IMG/VR virus record: IMGVR_UViG_2509276021_000001 | Location: 422-64,421 of that record | Length of the DNA: 64,000 nucleotides | Direction: 5' to 3' (one strand) | Origin: a virus | Part shown: positions 10,493 to 32,152 of the stretch, piece after piece | How positions within the stretch are numbered: position 1 is the stretch's first letter | Layout of the letters: each line of letters opens with the position of its first letter | Notes under the pieces: generated by a model | The model's database searches: none | What the model saw: the letters and a program-made list of their open reading frames with translations, nothing else | Told to the model about the DNA's origin: nothing | Translations under genes and position numbers: made by a program

Positions 10493-10710
10493 TGTCGGCC
10501 GCCCAGCGTACAGGAGACACATTGCTTGGGGTAAGCAAATAATCGCCGAGCGGCCAGATGAAACAATAGGACATATTCCTTTCAGATCTAGTTGTCTTTT
10601 TCTTAAGTCGGAAACCGTACAATCACTTTTGTTTGACTCTAAACTTTTAAAACCAGAGTTTGCAAAAGTATTATTTATTGCAAAAATGGAAATGTAGTGC
10701 ATAATATTTG

Positions 10711-10780
10711 TGCAGCGCCTAGATGCGCATGCCTACGATAAACCCCACCATGCTCATCCTCGCCGTCGCGAGGATTTTTT
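10711..10780 (+). ncRNA. Candidate ~70-nt small RNA
   Basis: TTGCAA (10678) and CATAAT (10700) promoter; no RBS-led ORF; ends in ATCCTCGC-CGTC-GCGAGGAT-TTTTT terminator. Confidence 0.4.
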
Positions 10781-10824
10781 CCCAAAAGCAACGAACGACA
10801 TAAGAAACATGGTTTAGCTATTCT

Positions 10825-11031
10825 TTAGCCACTGCCGAAGTGGCGATACGATTGGTGCGGAACTGGACGGGAACCGCATCCTCGGCTGGTGGTTAAATGT
10901 TTGGATCGTTGGATAGCATCTGCCCGTCTGTTCGCGATCTGCCCCTTCAAAGGGGTTCGGGCCGCGCAGCGGGCAATGGTCCACTCCTTCTCCAGCCCTT
11001 CTGCGTGGCCCGTATATGGAGTAATGAACAA
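10825..11031 (-). CDS. 68-aa basic hypothetical protein
   Basis: TTG start preceded by GGAGA at good spacing. Confidence 0.5.
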   Translation of the reverse strand: MFITPYTGHAEGLEKEWTIARCAARTPLKGQIANRRADAIQRSKHLTTSRGCGSRPVPHQSYRHFGSG

Positions 11032-11064
11032 GGCATCTCCACGTCATCTCGAGTTTCCCCAACT

Positions 11065-11089
11065 GCCCTGCTTCGGCGGGGCTTTTTTT
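11065..11089 (+). terminator. Intrinsic terminator, antisense to the 5' end of the 68-aa ORF
   Basis: GCCCTGC-TTCG-GCGGGGC followed by T7. Confidence 0.85.
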
Positions 11090-11136
11090 ATTGTCAGCAA
11101 GCTTATGAAGGTTTTCGCCACTGGACGGGATAATAG

Positions 11137-11421
11137 TTGAATGAGGGAGGAGTGATGCGCTGGCGGTTTCCGGCAGTTAACGACATGACACCGCAGCTTG
11201 ATCGATGCAGCCGCGGCCACCGGCCGCAGGCCTTATACGGCGCCATCTCGATCATATCCTGCCCGACTTGCGGAGAGAAAATCACTGTCGAGACGTCGCC
11301 GCTTTTCAGCGACAACGCCAGGCAGCGCGAGCATGAGGCGTGGCGGGCAGTATTGGCGTGGAATGAAAGGCGCAGTCATCTATCCGCCGGTGGGTTGCGG
11401 CTGAAACCGGCGGGCCCGTAA
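11137..11421 (+). CDS. Zn-ribbon protein resembling the Lar restriction-alleviation family
   Basis: CPTCG knuckle and C-terminal AVLAWNERR, similar to the Lar-type AWNxR ending; start uncertain. Confidence 0.45.
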   Translation: MNEGGVMRWRFPAVNDMTPQLDRCSRGHRPQALYGAISIISCPTCGEKITVETSPLFSDNARQREHEAWRAVLAWNERRSHLSAGGLRLKPAGP

Positions 11422-11991
11422 ATCGTCGATCTCTTTCTTCATGTCCTGAATCACATCGCGGGTGCCATACACGGCTCCGACATCCTGCCGCAGTTCATCG
11501 ACGCGTCGGTTGAGCTCAAGAACTTCTTGATCGCGAGCCCTATTGCGCTCTGTCCATTCATTACGGCTAACGCTGTTGATGCGAAGATCTGTTAGCGCAT
11601 CGTCGCTTCGCTTTCGATCTTCCGATGATCGGGTCGAACGATATTCGAGATCCTTCTGCGTCACCGCGGTTTCCGCCATCCGTGACATTGCGTCCTCGAG
11701 ACGGGAATTGTTGTCCTTGATCGGTTGAAGGGCCATGAACCCCAGACCCGAAAGAATGACGACGCCGACGCCGATTGCCGACCAAATGACGGGCCACTGC
11801 GTCTTGCCGGAACTCCGCAGCTCGTTCGACAAGGCAGCCAAATTGGCATTGACGCCCTGAAAGCCTGTGTTCATGTTCGATCTGAGGTCGATGATATCCT
11901 TGCCTTGGTTCTCGACGCGCTCGGATAAGCGAGCCCATGAAGCCATTGGGTCAAAGGTGTTGCCGTTGCCGTTTACCATCTCATCCGCCAT
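11380..11991 (-). CDS. Single-pass membrane coiled-coil protein at the end of the lysis cassette
   Basis: One TM segment (WPVIWSAIGVGVVILSGLGFMAL) flanked by heptad-rich regions. Confidence 0.7.
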   Translation of the reverse strand: MADEMVNGNGNTFDPMASWARLSERVENQGKDIIDLRSNMNTGFQGVNANLAALSNELRSSGKTQWPVIWSAIGVGVVILSGLGFMALQPIKDNNSRLEDAMSRMAETAVTQKDLEYRSTRSSEDRKRSDDALTDLRINSVSRNEWTERNRARDQEVLELNRRVDELRQDVGAVYGTRDVIQDMKKEIDDLRARRFQPQPTGG

Positions 11992-12019
11992 TTAATTGCG
12001 CCCTGCCCTTGCCCTATGC

Positions 12020-12325
12020 TTATCGTGCGCCGAGGCGCGTCTGGATATCGTCGTAGAATTCGACTGTTCGTTGCTGTCGACTGTTCGCTCGATCGAGCGC
12101 CTGCCTCTCCCGCGCGAGGATTGAGATCAGCGGCTGACCTTCCATGATCGGCGCGTGAGTTTCTTGTTTGCGGAGATCGTCGGGAAGCGCCGGAAGCAGC
12201 ACACCGGCTTGCGCCTGCCCTTTGGCGGAAGCCGCACGGTTCAGCCGCTCAGTGGCGGAGCAGCCAGTCACGATCAGCAGCAGTGACAGCGCAAGCGCGG
12301 TTCTTCTCGGAGAGCTGGAGTTCAT
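12020..12325 (-). CDS. Outer-membrane spanin (Rz1-like lipoprotein)
   Basis: Lipobox LIVTGC; 5' end embedded out of frame in the i-spanin 3' end. Confidence 0.75.
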   Translation of the reverse strand: MNSSSPRRTALALSLLLIVTGCSATERLNRAASAKGQAQAGVLLPALPDDLRKQETHAPIMEGQPLISILARERQALDRANSRQQRTVEFYDDIQTRLGAR

Positions 12326-12614
12326 AGGATTGGATCTCGTTTTCGAGGGTGTCTTTGGCGGCCTGCTCCGATGCCTGGGCGGCCTCGAGGCGTTTCCGGT
12401 GTTCTTCGGTGGCCTGGGCAGCGGCGTTGCGCTGGCGCTCCATCTCGGCGGCGCGGGCGTCGGCGGCGGTTTTCTCAGCCAGGAACACGTAGCCCGCCCG
12501 CGCCTCGCGAGCAGCGGAAGGATAGCCGATGGCGACGGCGTAGACGTGATAAAGGAGGATGCCCGCCGCGACACCGGCGCCAAGCTTGGCATAATCGAGG
12601 ATCCCGAACATCAC
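12249..12614 (-). CDS. Inner-membrane spanin (Rz-like)
   Basis: N-terminal TM, Ala/Glu/Arg coiled coil, C-terminal Cys; follows the lysozyme. Confidence 0.75.
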   Translation of the reverse strand: MMFGILDYAKLGAGVAAGILLYHVYAVAIGYPSAAREARAGYVFLAEKTAADARAAEMERQRNAAAQATEEHRKRLEAAQASEQAAKDTLENEIQSYELQLSEKNRACAVTAADRDWLLRH

Positions 12615-13075
12615 AGGTCCTCAAGGCAGAATTGGCGTTCCTTTTGCCGGCGGCGGGTCAGGCCTGGGAAGACGATGCCGGCAGCTCGGTTCCACTTCAA
12701 CAGAGCCTCGCAGCCTTCGGCCGTCTTTCCCTGATTAATGAGCTTGACGGCACTCGATCCGCAGGCCGACTTGACCCCGACATTGTAGGCGAAGGAGGTC
12801 AGCGCCACGAAACGAGCATCCGGCAGGGGGACGATCACGCATTGGTCAATGCCGGCGGCGTACTTTTGGAGCTCGAGCGAGAGAAGCGCCTTGCACTGCT
12901 CGACCGTCTTAAAGTCGCCAGGCTTCACGCCATTGGTGCTGCCGTAGCAGATCGTCCACGGCTGCCCTTGCGTGGCCGGATCCGGATAGGCGTTCTGTCG
13001 AAGCCCCTCAAACGAGCCCACAAGCGCCACGGCCATAGCTGCAGCGGCACTACCTTTCTGAAGACGGTTTGCCAT
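12611..13075 (-). CDS. Endolysin, GH24 phage lysozyme
   Basis: FEGLRQNAYPD...WTICYGST catalytic E/D/T; ALTSFAYNVG; GLTRRRQKER; Ala-rich N-terminus suggests a SAR anchor. Confidence 0.93.
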   Translation of the reverse strand: MANRLQKGSAAAAMAVALVGSFEGLRQNAYPDPATQGQPWTICYGSTNGVKPGDFKTVEQCKALLSLELQKYAAGIDQCVIVPLPDARFVALTSFAYNVGVKSACGSSAVKLINQGKTAEGCEALLKWNRAAGIVFPGLTRRRQKERQFCLEDL

Positions 13076-13304
13076 TCAAATCCCCTGAGATTTTCTGTTG
13101 AAGAACAATGCGCGCAACGATCGCAGCGGCGGCAATGACGCCGGTGAACGCCGACATTCCGAGCCGGACATAGAAGCTCTTCGCCACCCATTCGGCCGCG
13201 AAGAACAAATAGACGGGCTCGGCTATGATGATGAGAAGCAGAAAGGTAAGCAGGCGCACCGACCAGGCGCGCTTAAGCACCTCGCGCCAGTTATGGACGA
13301 GCAT
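13050..13304 (-). CDS. Putative holin
   Basis: NWREVLKRAWSVR start, two TM helices, overlaps the lysozyme start. Confidence 0.75.
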   Translation of the reverse strand: MLVHNWREVLKRAWSVRLLTFLLLIIIAEPVYLFFAAEWVAKSFYVRLGMSAFTGVIAAAAIVARIVLQQKISGDLNGKPSSER

Positions 13305-13868: not shown

Positions 13869-14984
13869 TCAAGTCGCCGTTGCGACGATCGGTCGACCAT
13901 CAGGCCGACGATCTGAGAAACGCGATTTAGCCCAGTCATTAATTGGCAGCTCGAAAAAGTTGTACGAGAGGGCCGCCAGGGCAATGGTCACCGGCAGGGC
14001 CAGCATTAGAAGAAGTGCGAAGATGACGCGCGACTGAGCGAACCCCATCTGCTGCAATTCGTATGCCCACAGAAGCAGCAGCGGTTGGTGGATCACGTAG
14101 AACCCATACGACCGCACTCCGAGGTAAACCAGAGCCGGCGCCTTCAGGACACGCCGCATGATCTGTGCTACCGGATTGCTCTCCCAGGCAACAGAAAGAA
14201 CTGCGATTGTCCAGATCGAAGCAGGAATGAGATCTCTCGACGAAGCCAGAAAGAGCGCGGCACCGACGAAGATGAGGCGCGGTTCTTTTCGAAGCTCATC
14301 GAGATAAAGCGCCGTCAGGATCCCAACCACGAACATCGAAAGTCTCATCGGAAGAAACGATGGGATCTGATCGAAGTGCCCCTGGAACAGGTTTGGGCCA
14401 AGAATGCCGAGCGTGACCAGAACAGCAGCGCTTACCCAACGCTTCTCTGGAGCGCGGCAGATGGCGACCATGATCGGGGCTACGAGATAGAACTGCCATT
14501 CGAGCGACAAGCTCCACAGAGGGCCGTTGAATGCAAGCGAGGCTCCATACAGAAATGTATCTGGAACCGCGCCGTGCAACAGCGTCAGGTGCGCTATCAA
14601 ATGAGAGTAAAACCCGATCTCCTCACCATCCGTTCTCATCAGGATACGCGCCAACGATGGCTGATCCGACCATGGCAGTTGCTGCATTACCAAGGGGAAC
14701 AGGTGAGAGGTTGAAATGCCAAGGATCAACGCAACGAGGTAGATCGGATAAATCCGAAAGAACCTTTTCGCCAAGTATCCAGCGTAGGTGCTTTGACTTC
14801 TAACAAGTGATGTGGTGATGGCGAAGCCGCTCAGCATGATGAAAACAGAAACGGCGTGACCACCCTGAGAGAGGAAGCCGAAGATCCTCCCTTCTCTTAA
14901 GCCTGCTAGAAAAAGAACATGCCCGATGAAAACCCACATAGCCATCAGCCACCTAAGTCCATCGAACTCTTTGACTACCTTCAT
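13869..14984 (-). CDS. Acyltransferase-3 family membrane O-acyltransferase (moron)
   Basis: FDGLR..MAMWVFIGH, AVSVFIMLSGFAI, RFFRIYP, WSLSLEWQFYL, SYGFYVIH, SYNFFELP motifs; about ten TM helices. Confidence 0.92.
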   Translation of the reverse strand: MKVVKEFDGLRWLMAMWVFIGHVLFLAGLREGRIFGFLSQGGHAVSVFIMLSGFAITTSLVRSQSTYAGYLAKRFFRIYPIYLVALILGISTSHLFPLVMQQLPWSDQPSLARILMRTDGEEIGFYSHLIAHLTLLHGAVPDTFLYGASLAFNGPLWSLSLEWQFYLVAPIMVAICRAPEKRWVSAAVLVTLGILGPNLFQGHFDQIPSFLPMRLSMFVVGILTALYLDELRKEPRLIFVGAALFLASSRDLIPASIWTIAVLSVAWESNPVAQIMRRVLKAPALVYLGVRSYGFYVIHQPLLLLWAYELQQMGFAQSRVIFALLLMLALPVTIALAALSYNFFELPINDWAKSRFSDRRPDGRPIVATAT

Positions 14985-15084: not shown

Positions 15085-17403
15085 TCAATTAGTCCACTTC
15101 GCCATAAGGTAGGCCTCTGCGACGCCGACCTTGCTGTCTGCTGACGTTACCGTGCCGTCCATCAGGAAGACCTCTCCATAGGCACCGCCGAAGGCAACGG
15201 CGGCGGTGTAGGCGTTCGTGCTGTCATCGTAGCGGCCGCCCAAGGACATCCGGTTGATCGTCATCGCAGGCCCATTCAGGGAACCTTGGTTCAGGACGAC
15301 AACGCCCTCGACCCGGATCGTCACCGTCTGGCCTTCGAATATCCACGCCACCGTGTACCAGTGATCAGCGGTCACCAGGCCATCGGCACTTTGGTTCTGG
15401 ACGAGCGTGTTGTTGACGTTGCGCCCAAAGCCGACGTTGTTTGTCCCGCCGAACGAGCCGCGAATGTAGTTGTTTATGGTCCCAGCATCCGGCGAGCAGG
15501 ACCAAGGGGTGCCCGAGACCGACGGGGTGCCTCGCTTCACTGCCGCTATGATGGTGAACGGGTTGTCGTCGCCCGTCATCTCGCTAACGACTGTGCTATT
15601 TGTGGTGAAAAGATAGTCGTTGTTCGCCGTGACGAATTTGATGCTCTTCTTGCCGTTGGCATCGGTGAGATATTCCGGTGTCTGGGCGCCGACGCTGTTG
15701 GCCAGAGCCGCACCGAGTTTTTTGCCGATGAATGCCTGCACAGACGACGAGCCGGCGACAGCCTGCGTGGTCGCTGCAGCATCGCTGAACACCGTAGCGT
15801 TGTCGTTCGCATCCCACCATTCGACAATTTTTGATTCCGTTGCCGGGTTAAAGGTGGCCGCAATTGTCTTGCTGGCCGACGCGGACTTGCTCTGCCCCAC
15901 CGAGTTGGTGACCGTGACCTGGACGGTATAGGTGCCGGCGACGGCTGTGCCGGTGATCCGGCCCGTCGCATCGTTGTACGAAAGACCTGAGCCAGTTAGG
16001 CCAGTGACAGCGATAGTTTTCGTCTTGGAAGCGCCATTGGTGACGAGGACACCGCAATCCTGCAGGGCGTAGAGGTCGATATTGACGCTTTCGCCCGCCA
16101 CGCCCAACTCGGGAACGACAGGGACCGGGCCAACGTTGACGGCGAAGCGGAGCGGGCGGCCAGCACAACCGGCCTTCCAGCCCGCCAAGACGAAATTCAG
16201 GCGCCCTGTCCTCCCAGAGGTGATGTTGACCGTGACCTCGCGCGTCCCGCTGTTGTAGCTGACTCCGGCCGGGAACTGCGAATAGATGGCCGCATGCGAG
16301 ACGCCTGGCTCGTTTTCTTCGTTGTAGACAACCTGCAGATATTCGCTGACAGAGGCGTCGCCCCAGATCGCCAGCGCGCTCGGGAGCGTGAATGTGACGC
16401 TCGATCCGTAATCGACATTGACGTCGTTGACGGAGATGATCGGCGCGAAACTCTGCTTGCCTGTGCGCGACCATACGCGGATCCAGTCGACATCGATCTG
16501 CGCCCCGTCGGCATCAGCATTCCATGCGGACTGGCTGTAGGTGTCGCCGTCGAAGGTCGGATTAAAGATGTGGCTGGAGATGATTGGATATTGCGGCTTG
16601 TCCTTGTCATTGCCGCCGTTCAGCGTGCCGTTCAGCACTCCGTCGATATAGCGCCGCGCGTTCGTCTTGTTGAAGATGAAGGAGATCGTGTGCCACTGGC
16701 CGTCATGGTCGAAGCGGGTGCCAGAGCTCGACGCGGTCGTTGACCCGCCCGTCCACAGGTTCTTATTGAATTTCGCGCCGAGGCTGGTCCCTTCGTGGTC
16801 GAATTCATCGGATTCAATCGGTTGGACCGGCGTCAGGGATTGCACCCATACCGTGGGATGCCAGCCAGCCGGCGCGCCGCTCGACATCCTCACCCTGGCC
16901 TCGAAGATGACATCCTCGGTTCCAGCCACGCCAGGATACCAGTACATGGCGCCGGCACCGGAGATCATCGCTGAAACTTCGTTGCGGACAACACCACTGG
17001 CAAGCGCCATATGAGCCTGCTCGCCAGAGGTTGCCTTTCGGGATTGCAGGGTGAGAACGCTCGCCGATAGCGACATATTGCTGAAGCCGGCCGGAACGCC
17101 CCGGTTGCTATCCATATGCCCAGTGAAAAGCGGGTCTGTATCGAACATCGTGCCGAGCGCGCCGTCAGAGCCTCGAGCCCCGGCGCCATAGGTGCGCGTC
17201 GGGAAATATTTGCCACGCGGCGCGGCCGGGCCAACTAGATCAAGCGCCGCGAACTCGTCACCGTCGTTGAGGGTATATCCCTCATAGATCGAACCGACAG
17301 CACCTACCGCGCCGACGGCAATGCCGCCGATCGTGCTGGCGGCGCGCGCGGCGCCCTTGGCGCTCGCAAGCATCGCGCGCATTTTCCGATTAGTCATTGC
17401 CAT
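15085..17403 (-). CDS. Putative virion protein: GH16 glycoside-hydrolase domain, Ig-like spacers and C-terminal LamG-type domain
   Basis: GWHPTVW, catalytic EFDHE (ExDxE, 16792-16806), WHTISF, YIDG and VDWIRVW match GH16; TGRITGT...YTVQVTVTNS Ig-like repeat; C-terminal lectin-like beta-sandwich. Confidence 0.78.
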   Translation of the reverse strand: MAMTNRKMRAMLASAKGAARAASTIGGIAVGAVGAVGSIYEGYTLNDGDEFAALDLVGPAAPRGKYFPTRTYGAGARGSDGALGTMFDTDPLFTGHMDSNRGVPAGFSNMSLSASVLTLQSRKATSGEQAHMALASGVVRNEVSAMISGAGAMYWYPGVAGTEDVIFEARVRMSSGAPAGWHPTVWVQSLTPVQPIESDEFDHEGTSLGAKFNKNLWTGGSTTASSSGTRFDHDGQWHTISFIFNKTNARRYIDGVLNGTLNGGNDKDKPQYPIISSHIFNPTFDGDTYSQSAWNADADGAQIDVDWIRVWSRTGKQSFAPIISVNDVNVDYGSSVTFTLPSALAIWGDASVSEYLQVVYNEENEPGVSHAAIYSQFPAGVSYNSGTREVTVNITSGRTGRLNFVLAGWKAGCAGRPLRFAVNVGPVPVVPELGVAGESVNIDLYALQDCGVLVTNGASKTKTIAVTGLTGSGLSYNDATGRITGTAVAGTYTVQVTVTNSVGQSKSASASKTIAATFNPATESKIVEWWDANDNATVFSDAAATTQAVAGSSSVQAFIGKKLGAALANSVGAQTPEYLTDANGKKSIKFVTANNDYLFTTNSTVVSEMTGDDNPFTIIAAVKRGTPSVSGTPWSCSPDAGTINNYIRGSFGGTNNVGFGRNVNNTLVQNQSADGLVTADHWYTVAWIFEGQTVTIRVEGVVVLNQGSLNGPAMTINRMSLGGRYDDSTNAYTAAVAFGGAYGEVFLMDGTVTSADSKVGVAEAYLMAKWTN

Positions 17404-17406
17404 CGA

Positions 17407-18054
17407 TTAGACCTCGACGCGGTGAAGGGAGACCTTGTAAACGGCCAGCGCGGTCGGCGTGTAGGCCGAGACTGCCTGCAGCACGCCAAAGACGTCGCCG
17501 CCTGTTACCCTGATCTGCTTGCCAACATTCGTGACCTCGGTCAGGGCAATCGAGCCGATATCGGTCGGTGCCGGAATGTCGATAAAGCCGAGATAAACGC
17601 TTCGGTCGCCACTCGGCACGTCGAAGGCGGCGGCATCCGCAGGTGCCGAGGGCGGCGTGGCGCTGTAGAGATGCAGGCGGAACGCAGTCCCCGGCGCGGT
17701 TGCGACATCGGCCTCGAGCTGGGCGCTGACGATCATGATCGAGGCGCCGCCGGACTTGCCAAGCCCGGTGAACTGAAGCGCAGCGGCCGCCGCACCAACA
17801 ACGGCGCCGGCGGCATAGGCCGTCGTGTTGTTCTGCCTGGTGAAGCTCTGAGAGACATCCGCCGCGGTCGAGACCTGGTTGACCGCCAGCGTGGTGCCGA
17901 GCGCCGTGGTGATCGCTTTGACGCGGTCGAGCAGTGTGTTGGCGGTCGGAGAGGCCTGCACCTCACCGACGAGCGCGATAAGCGCGGTAACGGTTGCGAC
18001 GTCAAGCGGATCGCCGTTGGCGTCGAGAACGGTAAGCTGCGGTACCTGTGCCAT
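17407..18054 (-). CDS. Putative structural adaptor/decoration protein
   Basis: Abuts both neighbours; GEVQASPTANTLLDR and FTRQNNTTAYAAGAVV motifs; beta-rich C-terminus. Confidence 0.6.
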   Translation of the reverse strand: MAQVPQLTVLDANGDPLDVATVTALIALVGEVQASPTANTLLDRVKAITTALGTTLAVNQVSTAADVSQSFTRQNNTTAYAAGAVVGAAAAALQFTGLGKSGGASIMIVSAQLEADVATAPGTAFRLHLYSATPPSAPADAAAFDVPSGDRSVYLGFIDIPAPTDIGSIALTEVTNVGKQIRVTGGDVFGVLQAVSAYTPTALAVYKVSLHRVEV

Positions 18055-19074
18055 TTAGATCACCTGTCCAATGTATTGAGAGTTGTCGGCGGAGCTGAAG
18101 TCGAGAGACGGGGCCGCCGGCGGACCGACGGGCGGGTTAATTCCGCCGAACGTCCGTGTGATCGCGATCGTCGCGGCGGACGTTTGGTCGAAAATTGCTG
18201 TGAACGGAACTTCCATGACGACGGCCCGGCCGTTGCCCGGGCCAACCGGCGAGCCGTTGGTCAACTTCACCTTCGGGATGCTGATATCGTAGGAGTTGCC
18301 GAGGCCGTCGCTCAGCGTTGCTGAGATCCCGATATCGGAGTGGTCGATGATCGCTTGATAGAGATCCGAGCTTTCGAAAACCGCCGTGAGGCTCCCCGTC
18401 ACATCGAAGATGCCAAGGCCGAAATCATAGACCTCATACTGGCCGACGATATCGACCGGGTAGAGGTTGTTGTTCACCCTGATCGAGAGCGCCTGGAGTT
18501 TCGGCGTGGTGGTGATGCCCGTGATCGAGAGGGATGCCACATTCAACGCGGCATTGAAAACCGGGGTCGTCGTGGCGCCGGCATAGGTCGATCCGGATAT
18601 CGCAGCGGCTGCCGGATTCGGGCTTCCAACTCCGAGAATTCCCCAATTCGCGGTGACGTTCTGCTTGGCATTCAGCTGCAGATCGAGAGTGTTGATCCTG
18701 CACCCGAGGTAGCGCGTGAACACATCGGCCACGCCCATTTCAAACCGCTTTTCGAAAGCAAATGTCTTTTGCAGGACACCGTTCTTCAGCGAAGACCCCG
18801 ACCAGGTCCCGCATAAGAGCGCGGCCAACCAATCATCGAAGGTGAAAAACGAGAAGAGCGTGTTGACCGGCCCGGTGACCTGGCGGCCGACGTCGGTGAC
18901 ATCAGTCCGGTTGCGATCATCCCGGACTTCGTCCGAGCTGACCGTCTGCTTGTCCAATGTCAGCCCCTCGCTCACGTAGCGGGCGATCTGCCAAGGCGGA
19001 TTTGCGGGGATAACGCCCGGCGTCGTCTCTTTGACGAACGCGAGCTGTGTCTGTGAGCCATGGGCTACAGTCAT
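18055..19074 (-). CDS. Second tail-tube protein paralog with C-terminal extension
   Basis: Hand alignment to 31125-32057 gives about 212/310 identities; extra tail GINPPVGPPAAPSLDFSSADNSQYIGQVI. Confidence 0.9.
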   Translation of the reverse strand: MTVAHGSQTQLAFVKETTPGVIPANPPWQIARYVSEGLTLDKQTVSSDEVRDDRNRTDVTDVGRQVTGPVNTLFSFFTFDDWLAALLCGTWSGSSLKNGVLQKTFAFEKRFEMGVADVFTRYLGCRINTLDLQLNAKQNVTANWGILGVGSPNPAAAAISGSTYAGATTTPVFNAALNVASLSITGITTTPKLQALSIRVNNNLYPVDIVGQYEVYDFGLGIFDVTGSLTAVFESSDLYQAIIDHSDIGISATLSDGLGNSYDISIPKVKLTNGSPVGPGNGRAVVMEVPFTAIFDQTSAATIAITRTFGGINPPVGPPAAPSLDFSSADNSQYIGQVI

Positions 19075-19169
19075 ATGGGGCTCCATCTAACGGGATTGCC
19101 CACGTCATCCGACGTTGGCGGACGAGCTTGCCTATGGCTCGAATTCAGGGCGCTTTGCTTATGGCGGCT

Positions 19170-30941: not shown

Positions 30942-31125
30942 TGGTGGTGCTTTCTTCCTCGGTTACCGGGGCATCGTCGGTGAGCCCCTTGGCGCGCATG
31001 AGCTTGATGAACTCCGCCGGCATCGGCGCGCTTTCCACGCCGGCGGTGAAATGGGTTTTGACGTCGTTGGGAAATCCCGTGAACGACACTGCAGGAATGA
31101 AGGTGCCTTTGTACTTGCCAGCCAT
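30901..31125 (-). CDS. 74-aa hypothetical protein
   Basis: TGATG coupling to the tube gene stop; acidic tail. Confidence 0.6.
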   Translation of the reverse strand: MAGKYKGTFIPAVSFTGFPNDVKTHFTAGVESAPMPAEFIKLMRAKGLTDDAPVTEEESTTNDSEESHSDKPQG

Positions 31126-32057
31126 CACGCCACCGCCCTTGTTATGACCAGAGATGCTGCCGCGGTCGCGTCGATGATGGCCGTGAAGGGGCACTCCATC
31201 ACCACGGCGCGTCCGTTTCCGGGACCGACGGGCGAGCCGTTGGTCAGTTTCAGTTTCGGAACCGAGAACGTGTACTTATTGCCGGTGCTGGCGCCGATCG
31301 TGAAGTTCAGCGTCAAGTCGCTGTGATTGATGACCGCGTCGAACAGATCCTTGCTCTCGAAGACCGCGGTCATCGTCCCGGAAACCTCGAAGAGGCCAAG
31401 ACCGAAGTCATAGGTCTCATACTGACCCAGAACATCCACGGCGTAGATGTTGTTGGTGATGCGCAGCGACAGCGCTTGCAGCTTCGGGCTTGCCGTTACG
31501 CCCGTCATCACGAGCGAACCGACGTTCAGTGCTGCGTTAAGGACCGGCGTGGTGGTCGGATCGGTATAGGTTGCCCCGGTGACAATCGCAGTGTCAGGAT
31601 TCGGGCTGCCGATGCCCATAACACCCCAGTTGGCCGTAACGTTCTGCTTAGCATTCAGCTGCAGATCCAGCGTGTTCATCCTGCAGCCGCGGTAGCGGGC
31701 ATAAACGTCGGTGGCCCCGAGCTCGAAGGTCTTTTCGAACGCCAGCGTCTTCACGACATTGCCGTTCTTCAGGACGTTGGTCGCCCAGTCGTTCGCGAGC
31801 AAGGCACTTAGCCAATCGTCGAACGTGCCGTATGACAACAGCGTATTGATCGGGCCAGTTACCTGGCGCCCGACGTCGGTCACGTCGCTGCGGTTCCTGT
31901 CCGGCCGAACTTCGTCAGACGACACGGTCTGCTTGTCGAGCGTGAGGCCTTCGGTCACGTAACGCGCTATTTTCCAGGTCGGTGTCGCCGGGATCGTGCC
32001 CGGCACCGTCTCCATCACGTACGCAAGGCGTGTCTGTGAGCCGTGAGCTACAGCCAT
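31125..32057 (-). CDS. Major tail tube protein
   Basis: Canonical position between terminator and chaperones; beta-rich 310 aa; GGAG RBS. Confidence 0.9.
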   Translation of the reverse strand: MAVAHGSQTRLAYVMETVPGTIPATPTWKIARYVTEGLTLDKQTVSSDEVRPDRNRSDVTDVGRQVTGPINTLLSYGTFDDWLSALLANDWATNVLKNGNVVKTLAFEKTFELGATDVYARYRGCRMNTLDLQLNAKQNVTANWGVMGIGSPNPDTAIVTGATYTDPTTTPVLNAALNVGSLVMTGVTASPKLQALSLRITNNIYAVDVLGQYETYDFGLGLFEVSGTMTAVFESKDLFDAVINHSDLTLNFTIGASTGNKYTFSVPKLKLTNGSPVGPGNGRAVVMECPFTAIIDATAAASLVITRAVA

Positions 32058-32152
32058 GATAAGGGCTCCATCTATGGGAAGGGCGCGTCGTCACGACGGG
32101 CCAGTGCGCGCTTGCCGAAGGCGCGTGTCGGCGTCCGGACGGACCGGAAGTG

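Follow-up and report, generated by a model that had tools for sequence, protein, structure and literature searches.

A second tail-tube gene with a portable C-terminal tag, a proposed mount for an adaptor and a surface enzyme in a Rhizobium provirus

What would a siphophage do with a second gene for the subunit of its tail tube? The question is raised by a 64,000-nucleotide (nt) stretch of viral DNA (positions 422 to 64,421 of IMG/VR record IMGVR_UViG_2509276021_000001; hereafter the window), part of a 76.7-kb provirus record, in which the major tube gene, T1, has a paralog, T2, at the head of three abutting genes on the minus strand; the other two encode proteins of 215 and 772 amino acids (aa), which we call the adaptor and the cargo enzyme. 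A sequence-only reading of the window had proposed that T2 is a minor tube subunit that co-assembles into the tail and whose C-terminal peptide docks the adaptor and a glycanase. Comparative evidence, namely the portability of that peptide, the pairing of adaptor and cargo types, the tracking of the resident tube by T2 and the selection acting on it, favours this proposal, and we consider it probable that T2 is a tube subunit built into the tail and displaying a docking tag for the adaptor and the enzyme.

T2 is a duplicate of T1. In BLASTP, the 339-aa T2 product and the 310-aa product of T1, the parent-type copy (31125..32057, minus strand), are identical at 212 of 307 positions (69%; 84% positives, E 2e-162) and align without gaps, close to the hand count of 212/310, or about 68%, from which an end-to-end duplication had been read. 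Both match Pfam PF18906 Phage_tube_2 (E 1.7e-44 for T2 and 1.8e-46 for T1) and phrog_290, the match of T2 reaching 152.9 bits against a cut-off of 27 and spanning positions 1-265 of the 266 in the Pfam profile; no third tube match occurs in the 76.7-kb record. The T2 gene spans 18055-19074 on the minus strand, as had been claimed: ATG at 19074 is the true start, with a GGAG box 8-11 nt upstream, homologs starting there and gene callers giving 339 aa, and the frame runs without frameshift or stop to the TAA at 18055-18057. Residues 1-310 (18145..19074) form the tube domain, a double tube-domain fold of the T5 pb6/p140 and P74-26 class. T1 ends in ...TRAVA without an extension, whereas T2 goes on for 29 residues: a flexible Gly/Pro-rich linker not found in T1 (residues 311-321, FGGINPPVGPP, 18112..18144; predicted local distance difference test, pLDDT, below 50), and the candidate docking tag (residues 322-339, the AAPSLDFSSADNSQYIGQVI region, 18058..18111), with the tail ...PSLDFSSADNSQYIGQVI. 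The proline-rich linker and LDFSSADNSQY tail noted earlier are thus present, the latter as ...LDFSSADNSQYIGQVI. The abutment of the trio is likewise as described, the adaptor gene (17407..18054, minus) beginning directly at the T2 stop with 0 nt between them and the cargo gene (15085..17403, minus) following after a gap of 3 nt.

The duplication extends to the region upstream. Intergenic leaders of 95 nt precede both T1 (32058..32152, minus) and T2 (19075..19169, minus) and are homologous: the 12-mer TAGATGGAGCCC that the sequence-only reading had seen before both genes is there, and about 60-95 nt of leader align, with a GGCAAGC box, a hairpin and the GGAG ribosome-binding site in common. In an alignment of nine leaders upstream of tube genes (those of T1 and T2 in the window and of loci L004, L007, L009, L010, L017, L006 and L026; loci are given by our own handles), the GGCAAGC box is invariant and lies in the loop of a small stem, whose arms CGCGC/GCGCG are swapped for CGAGC/GCTCG or TGCGC/GCGCA; a second hairpin, of 9 bp, has quite different sequences in the two leader types. 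The fold z-scores of the leader hairpins, -1.1 to +0.9, are not significant, no Rfam family matches the leader, and RNAalifold recovered no common structure from the leaders, the two types being out of register. Tube genes may have in this leader an RNA element with a regulatory or stabilising role.

The second tube gene is intact and kept by selection. Tagged tube copies of 333-343 aa, 87%, 78% and 55% identical to T2, occur in other Rhizobium prophages, and each of these genomes also has a normal 310-aa tube gene. The ratio of nonsynonymous to synonymous substitution rates is 0.085-0.12 among T2 orthologs, against 0.079-0.117 for T1; T2 evolves under purifying selection, not neutrally, and is not decaying. 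Of the 84 positions conserved at 90% or more in 39 ordinary tube proteins, T2 copies keep 74-82 (78 for T2 of the window), and most replacements are conservative. An AlphaFold 2 model of T2 has a pLDDT of 88 overall and above 90 over most of residues 1-310, and is disordered beyond 310. In Foldseek, the model matches 8xan, the tube of an Acinetobacter phage (E 3.5e-28, template modelling (TM) scores 0.84/0.93), the P74-26 tube (E 3e-16) and the T5 proteins pb6 and p140 (E about 1e-12), p140 over its full length with a TM score by target of 0.71; 8xan is recognised also by sequence (phmmer E 9e-45). In T5, tube proteins of this class form rings of three chains with two tube domains per chain (Linares et al. 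2023, PMC10038345), and we propose that T2 likewise polymerises into the virion tail tube.

Tagged tubes have more than one ancestor. The T2 of Rhizobium sp. ZK1 shares 84% identity with the T1 of the same genome but no more than 53-56% with the leguminosarum copies of T2. A maximum-likelihood tree of 58 tube domains places the T2 pair of ZK1 and L026 as sister to ZK1 T1 and groups the five leguminosarum T2 rows in a clade whose sister is the set of their 23 T1 rows; the starred branches of the tree force two changes, and a single origin of the tagged copy is found in 0% of bootstrap trees. On this tree, the resident tube gave rise to the tagged copy's tube part on two separate occasions, by two duplications or by gene conversion. 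Such tracking of the resident tube is what one would expect if T1 and T2 must fit one lattice. The two T2 lineages also share 14 changed positions where 6.5 are expected (p 0.0015), five of them with identical replacements, and a long stem (0.22 vs 0.006) leads to the leguminosarum T2 clade. Linker length differs between the lineages, the linker being shorter in ZK1 and L026. A related provirus (L014, genome G002) has a tube gene of 79% identity and no T2 module; at 10666-13272, in place of the module, it carries a single 868-aa protein after its gpJ-like gene.

The chief new finding lies at the other end of T2, in the tag. Its consensus, (P/A)-S-L-x-F-x4-N-S-Q-Y-I-G-Q-V-I, takes up about the last 18 residues of T2 (PSLDFSS..NSQYIGQVI), and between the window and ZK1 the tag is identical at 15 of 18 positions, against identities of 56% for the tube domains and 60% for the downstream proteins. 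A degenerate DNA pattern for NSQYIGQ, scanned through two collections, gave true matches in 8 of 11 cases among viral contigs and 6 of 54 among metagenomes. All 14 place the motif at the exact C-terminus of a protein, with two residues beyond GQ, and wherever downstream sequence is present a gene follows at a spacing of -1 to +1 nt, with a 91-nt exception in L020 found by context lookup, and begins M-A-Q/E-V...V-K/L-D-A-x-G...D/E-V-A/P-T, the start of the adaptor. None of the chance matches to the pattern had either the C-terminal placement or an adaptor gene. The comparison of tag, adaptor and cargo covers about 20 loci, which are related and not phylogenetically independent; among them, the second tube of two-tube prophages is followed by the adaptor gene and a swapped cargo in five prophage lineages, the order tube, tag, adaptor, cargo being kept throughout.

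The carriers of the tag are diverse. Besides the tube copies (window, L004, L005, L009, L010, L026 and L080), the tag ends two head-closure proteins (PF05521, phrog_25; L025 53-478, minus, and L034 4869-5318, plus), whose genes stand among those for head and connector, each followed by an adaptor gene; this arrangement implies neck fibres anchored on the connector in these two loci, and the 852-position family phrog_10356, which starts with a head-closure domain, suggests a direct-fusion version of the same anchoring. Further carriers are a cadherin-like protein (L029), fibronectin type III (FN3) and immunoglobulin (Ig)-like proteins (L020, L021), a 417-aa protein (L022), 130-aa proteins (L024 and L028, the latter being phage PPF1) and mini proteins of 46-60 aa (L018, L041, L070). 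Among these carriers, a 46-aa protein in a P2-like myophage and the FN3, Ig-like and 417-aa proteins came to light as upstream neighbours of distant relatives of the adaptor. The tag thus appears to be portable, recurring at the C-terminus of unrelated virion proteins; a literature search for the tag sequence found no occurrence of it. An isolated temperate myophage, vB_RleM_PPF1, has a tagged locus, PPF1_30/31/32, annotated as hypothetical or SGNH. The mini-carriers (L018 3779-3919, L041, L070) consist of little more than the tag, one of them lying after the lysis genes of a P2-like myophage. In the N4-like Rhizobium phage RHph_I1_6 (L090 6579-8318), the adaptor is gp035 and the cargo gp036, which is annotated as a minor tail protein and has the basic N-terminal helix described below; gp034, upstream of the adaptor, is without the tag and lies 146 nt away, and the carrier would therefore be encoded elsewhere, or the socket would bind something else.

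Two ways of making the tagged form without a dedicated gene were considered and rejected. Stop readthrough from T2 into the adaptor, which are in frame in four prophages, does not hold as a rule, since other loci have 1-nt or 91-nt spacing and the stop is TAA; and a recoded extension of T1, of the SPP1 gp17.1* type, is not what is found, the tagged form being a separate gene 12 kb away and T1 being without an extension.

The adaptor, whose gene starts directly after the T2 stop in all four lineages checked, matches no Pfam, PHROG or NCBIfam model. Its family is built of three parts: a conserved N-terminal stretch of 30 residues, a middle of very variable length, which in longer members consists of exact heptads such as SVDAVKA (coiled coil), and a C-terminal domain of about 150 residues. 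The AlphaFold 2 model of the 215-aa protein (pLDDT 88) shows an N-terminal hairpin and helix, a short helical stalk and a C-terminal knob, an eight-stranded jelly roll; the fold is matched by trimeric phage cement proteins, TNF-like trimers, small-virus capsids and carbohydrate-binding modules, and the adaptor is probably a trimer. A profile search with the C-terminal domain found 3862 representative relatives at E <= 0.001, mostly of the knob, many having other N-termini and some signal peptides. The jelly-roll domain (adaptor residues 65-215, window 17407-17860) thus belongs to a very large family that includes bacterial signal-peptide proteins, and phage members of the family have other N-termini, such as MADNVAITAGSG.... 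Pattern-based searches for further loci, built from the adaptor alignment, were swamped by chance matches and gave one locus each.

The 772-aa protein at the end of the trio has Pfam matches to GH16 (residues 169-308; 33.1 bits, cut-off 22), He_PIG and a C-terminal LamG, as had been read from the sequence, and it is a predicted glycanase that would hydrolyse beta-glycans. It is laid out as a basic helix, a Gly/Ala-rich segment, the GH16-like domain, the He_PIG Ig domain and the LamG-like domain. A catalytic-type motif, EFDHE, lies at residue 200, and 45 of 54 homologs have the equivalent ExDxE. The homologs share a conserved IGGxAxG...YEGYTL segment but differ freely in the N-termini that precede it, as is usual where anchor modules have been swapped. 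The protein also matches phrog_9750 (E 3.8e-84); of the 846 positions of this profile, the match covers only those from 347 onward, and members of phrog_9750 therefore appear to carry about 346 extra N-terminal residues. A tblastn search found no match to the GH16 protein among isolated phages, and the family seems confined to prophages and metagenomes.

The N-terminus of the cargo goes with the type of the adaptor knob. In the window, the basic N-terminal helix reads MAMTNRKMRAML, and the helix is found again in the cargoes of other modules: the N-terminus fits MAxxxR/KxxRxxL in 11 of 11 loci with a P0003-type knob, the jelly roll seen in the 215-aa adaptor (window, G001/L080, L009, ZK1, L026, PPF1, L018, L021, L041 and RHph_I1_6) and in none of five with other knobs (L020, L024, L029, L034 and L070), which is a pattern rather than a clean statistic because the loci are related. 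Behind this N-terminus, and behind the other knobs, the proteins differ: GH16 in the window, GDSL/SGNH esterases in G001, L009 and PPF1, an SASA acetylesterase in ZK1, a beta-helix protein in L020 and, in the remainder, proteins without family assignment. The assigned cargoes are of kinds typical of virion polysaccharide enzymes and have been swapped between modules. The SGNH hydrolase PPF1_32 (L089, phage vB_RleM_PPF1, 9497-10714) probably begins 111 nt upstream of its annotated start: read from an ATG that lies one base behind PPF1_31, it has the conserved cargo N-terminus MAVSRATRRLLLSKRG.

The mechanism that we propose joins these parts. T2 would enter the resident tail tube lattice together with T1. 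Its C-terminus would face outward, as in its T5 counterparts, the Ig domain of pb6 being external and the C-terminus of p140 touching the collar (PMC10038345). The flexible Gly/Pro linker would then present the 18-residue tag on the outer surface and let it reach the adaptor, whose conserved N-terminal hairpin and helix would receive it as a socket, and the stalk and knob of the adaptor would in turn hold the GH16 glycanase by its basic N-terminal helix. Carried on the tail, the enzyme would cut polysaccharide of the host surface, most likely the exopolysaccharide or capsule of Rhizobium, and help the phage to reach its receptor; the enzymes of sister modules would deacetylate such polysaccharide. 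The diversity of carriers and cargoes suggests a broader statement, namely a general three-tier plug-and-socket standard in which a tag can be grafted onto any ring-forming or surface protein, the adaptor provides the socket and its knob holds swappable depolymerases or esterases, in all three tail types, with fresh tube duplicates recruited repeatedly in siphophages; we see the chances of this generalisation as evenly balanced.

Several observations weigh against the docking proposal. The module is accessory, and T2 dispensable for tail building, because the related phage G002 does without them. The case for binding of the tag to the adaptor and of the knob to the cargo comes from the order, conservation and joint occurrence of genes in loci that are related and not independent. 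The jelly-roll matches of the adaptor are generic, with Z at most 7.5, and allow no specific family to be named. For the mini-carriers of 46-60 aa, anchoring in a virion is hard to explain, and RHph_I1_6 has an adaptor and a cargo without a tagged gene directly upstream. The accessory and self-contained nature of the module, together with the presence of the tag on carriers other than tubes, including head-closure and tiny proteins, would also suit the alternative raised at the outset, that the trio builds a structure outside the tail tube, be it an appendage, free or on the capsid, or an enzyme complex that is released and for which T2 serves as scaffold ring. We find this improbable, however: no second tape-measure, chaperone or initiator gene is part of the module, the other carriers that can be identified are virion ring proteins, and in each of two independent lineages the tube domain stays close to the resident tube and retains the family-conserved positions, neither of which a free scaffold needs. 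Still further from the evidence, and very improbable in our judgement, is a non-structural T2, a decoy against tube-sensing host defences or a leftover of prophage recombination, with unrelated morons downstream. The interval between fibre and lysis genes is indeed a usual site for morons and has an O-acetyltransferase gene next door, but T2 is under purifying selection and has no frameshift or stop, its tag is better conserved than its tube domain and always coupled to an adaptor gene, and the gene order persists in five lineages while the cargo is swapped. Selection and gene syntax together led us to reject the decoy, pseudogene and recombination-leftover readings.

A third alternative refines rather than replaces the incorporation of T2 into the tail: T2 may be confined to one specialised ring, at the tube end that adjoins the gpM-like distal tail protein, and be the sole carrier of the appendage. 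T5 p140 offers a precedent and is matched by the T2 model over its full length, and both the long stem of the leguminosarum T2 clade and the parallel replacements fit a changed ring interface. On the other hand, the young copy of ZK1 and L026 is still 84% identical to its T1, which suggests that a new duplicate can function with no special interface; the T2 gene comes behind the fibre genes and not with those of the tip; a gene for a p132-like Ig collar is absent, the neighbouring adaptor being a jelly roll; and T2 retains the leader and ribosome-binding site of the abundant T1. We regard the single ring as possible though rather unlikely; between one special ring and many, the ZK1 copy and the shared leader speak for free mixing of T1 and T2, and the long stem, the parallel changes and T5 for a special ring.

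The surroundings of the module place it within a tail operon. The nearest protein relatives of the window carry Rhizobium names, mostly R. leguminosarum, and its minus strand has a lambda-like tail operon whose first gene is T1, upstream of the tail chaperones and the tape-measure gene, an order that is the same in related prophages. After the chaperones and the 1528-aa tape measure come three small tip genes (117, 167 and 130 aa), whose counterparts in related prophages are an unassigned 117-aa gene, a DUF1833 gene and an NlpC/P60 gene; these are followed by a 1212-aa gpJ-like protein, a 380-aa fibre protein (phrog_19294), a 150-aa protein, and then T2, the adaptor and the cargo enzyme. T2 is thus 12 kb from T1, downstream of the gpJ-like, fibre and 150-aa genes and not among the tail tip genes, and the module stands at the end of the operon, ahead of the lysis genes. 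Searches of Pfam, PHROG and NCBIfam gave no significant family match for the 150-aa gene, which leaves its earlier label of fibre chaperone unconfirmed. On the far side, a gene for an acyltransferase-3 (O-antigen acetylase-like) protein adjoins the module (window 13869-14984, minus, the strand of the module), and such a gene adjoins the module also in L009 (13156-14151), on the opposite strand. These neighbours and the acetylesterases of sister modules hint at a theme of receptor acetylation.

The attachment of side fibres or depolymerases to flexible tails is known for very few siphophages, and the locus would bear on this in several ways. A grammar of tag, adaptor and cargo appears to be common to sipho-, myo- and possibly podophages. 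If the proposed contacts are true, they provide a simple rule for spotting virion-appendage genes among unknowns, they explain the swapping of enzyme specificities between phages, and they define a small pair of peptide and socket, open to study as a means of fixing proteins to phage particles.

Among known systems, the layering most resembles adaptor-based tailspike branching, as in G7C gp66/gp63.1, the tailspike proteins of CBA120 and K1-5 gp37, which belong to podophages or to myophage baseplates. There, too, parts plug in by layers, and a conserved N-terminal module of the enzyme sits on an adaptor and makes the enzymes swappable, but the folds and sequences differ from those of the module of T2, adaptor and cargo, and we know of no portable C-terminal peptide tag on ring proteins in those systems. 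Outward C-terminal additions, on a fraction or on all of the tube subunits, are themselves familiar: SPP1 gp17.1* and the extensions of lactococcal major tail proteins are reached by recoding, decorate the shaft and can bind sugars. Together with the C-terminal Ig domain of lambda gpV, also an add-on of the tube subunit (PMC12617516), these are folded domains on the same gene product, sometimes made by frameshift, whereas T2 is a separate gene copy with a short peptide that would recruit two further proteins. In Ur-lambda, the side tail fibres are held by a collar made of the N-terminal domains of twelve Stf chains (PMC12617516). The likeness lies in the lambda-type tail tip and in the position of the side fibres, on the tube near its junction with the distal tail protein; the difference is that neither a tube paralog nor a tag is involved.

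The closest relative of the proposed arrangement is that of T5, in which p140, a paralog of the major tube protein, forms a ring that is wrapped by the p132 collar holding the pb1 side fibres (Linares et al. 2023, PMC10038345). The sequence-only reading knew of no description of an arrangement like that of the window. This stands for the tag, as no short C-terminal peptide shared by tube, connector and decoration proteins was found described, but not for the use of a tube paralog, since p140 seats a fibre collar in T5 (PMC10038345). Like T2, p140 is encoded in the same genome as the major tube protein and has a double tube-domain fold; it is part of the tube, and its C-terminus is at the fibre-holding structure. 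The two differ in several respects. Identity to the major tube protein is 9% for p140 (to pb6) and 69-84% for T2 (to its T1); p140 is without a tag; its gene is among the tip genes, that of T2 after the fibre genes; and the T5 fibres bind via a dodecameric Ig-like collar, p132, which has no counterpart at the T2 locus, where the adaptor consists of hairpin, helix and jelly roll. The T5 authors considered the pair of p140 and p132 a landmark of T5-like phages only and expected another anchoring in lambdoid phages (PMC10038345). T5 thus uses a collar round a tube paralog and lambda a collar made by the fibres themselves, and the T2 locus points to a third solution, a copy of the tube subunit with a docking peptide.

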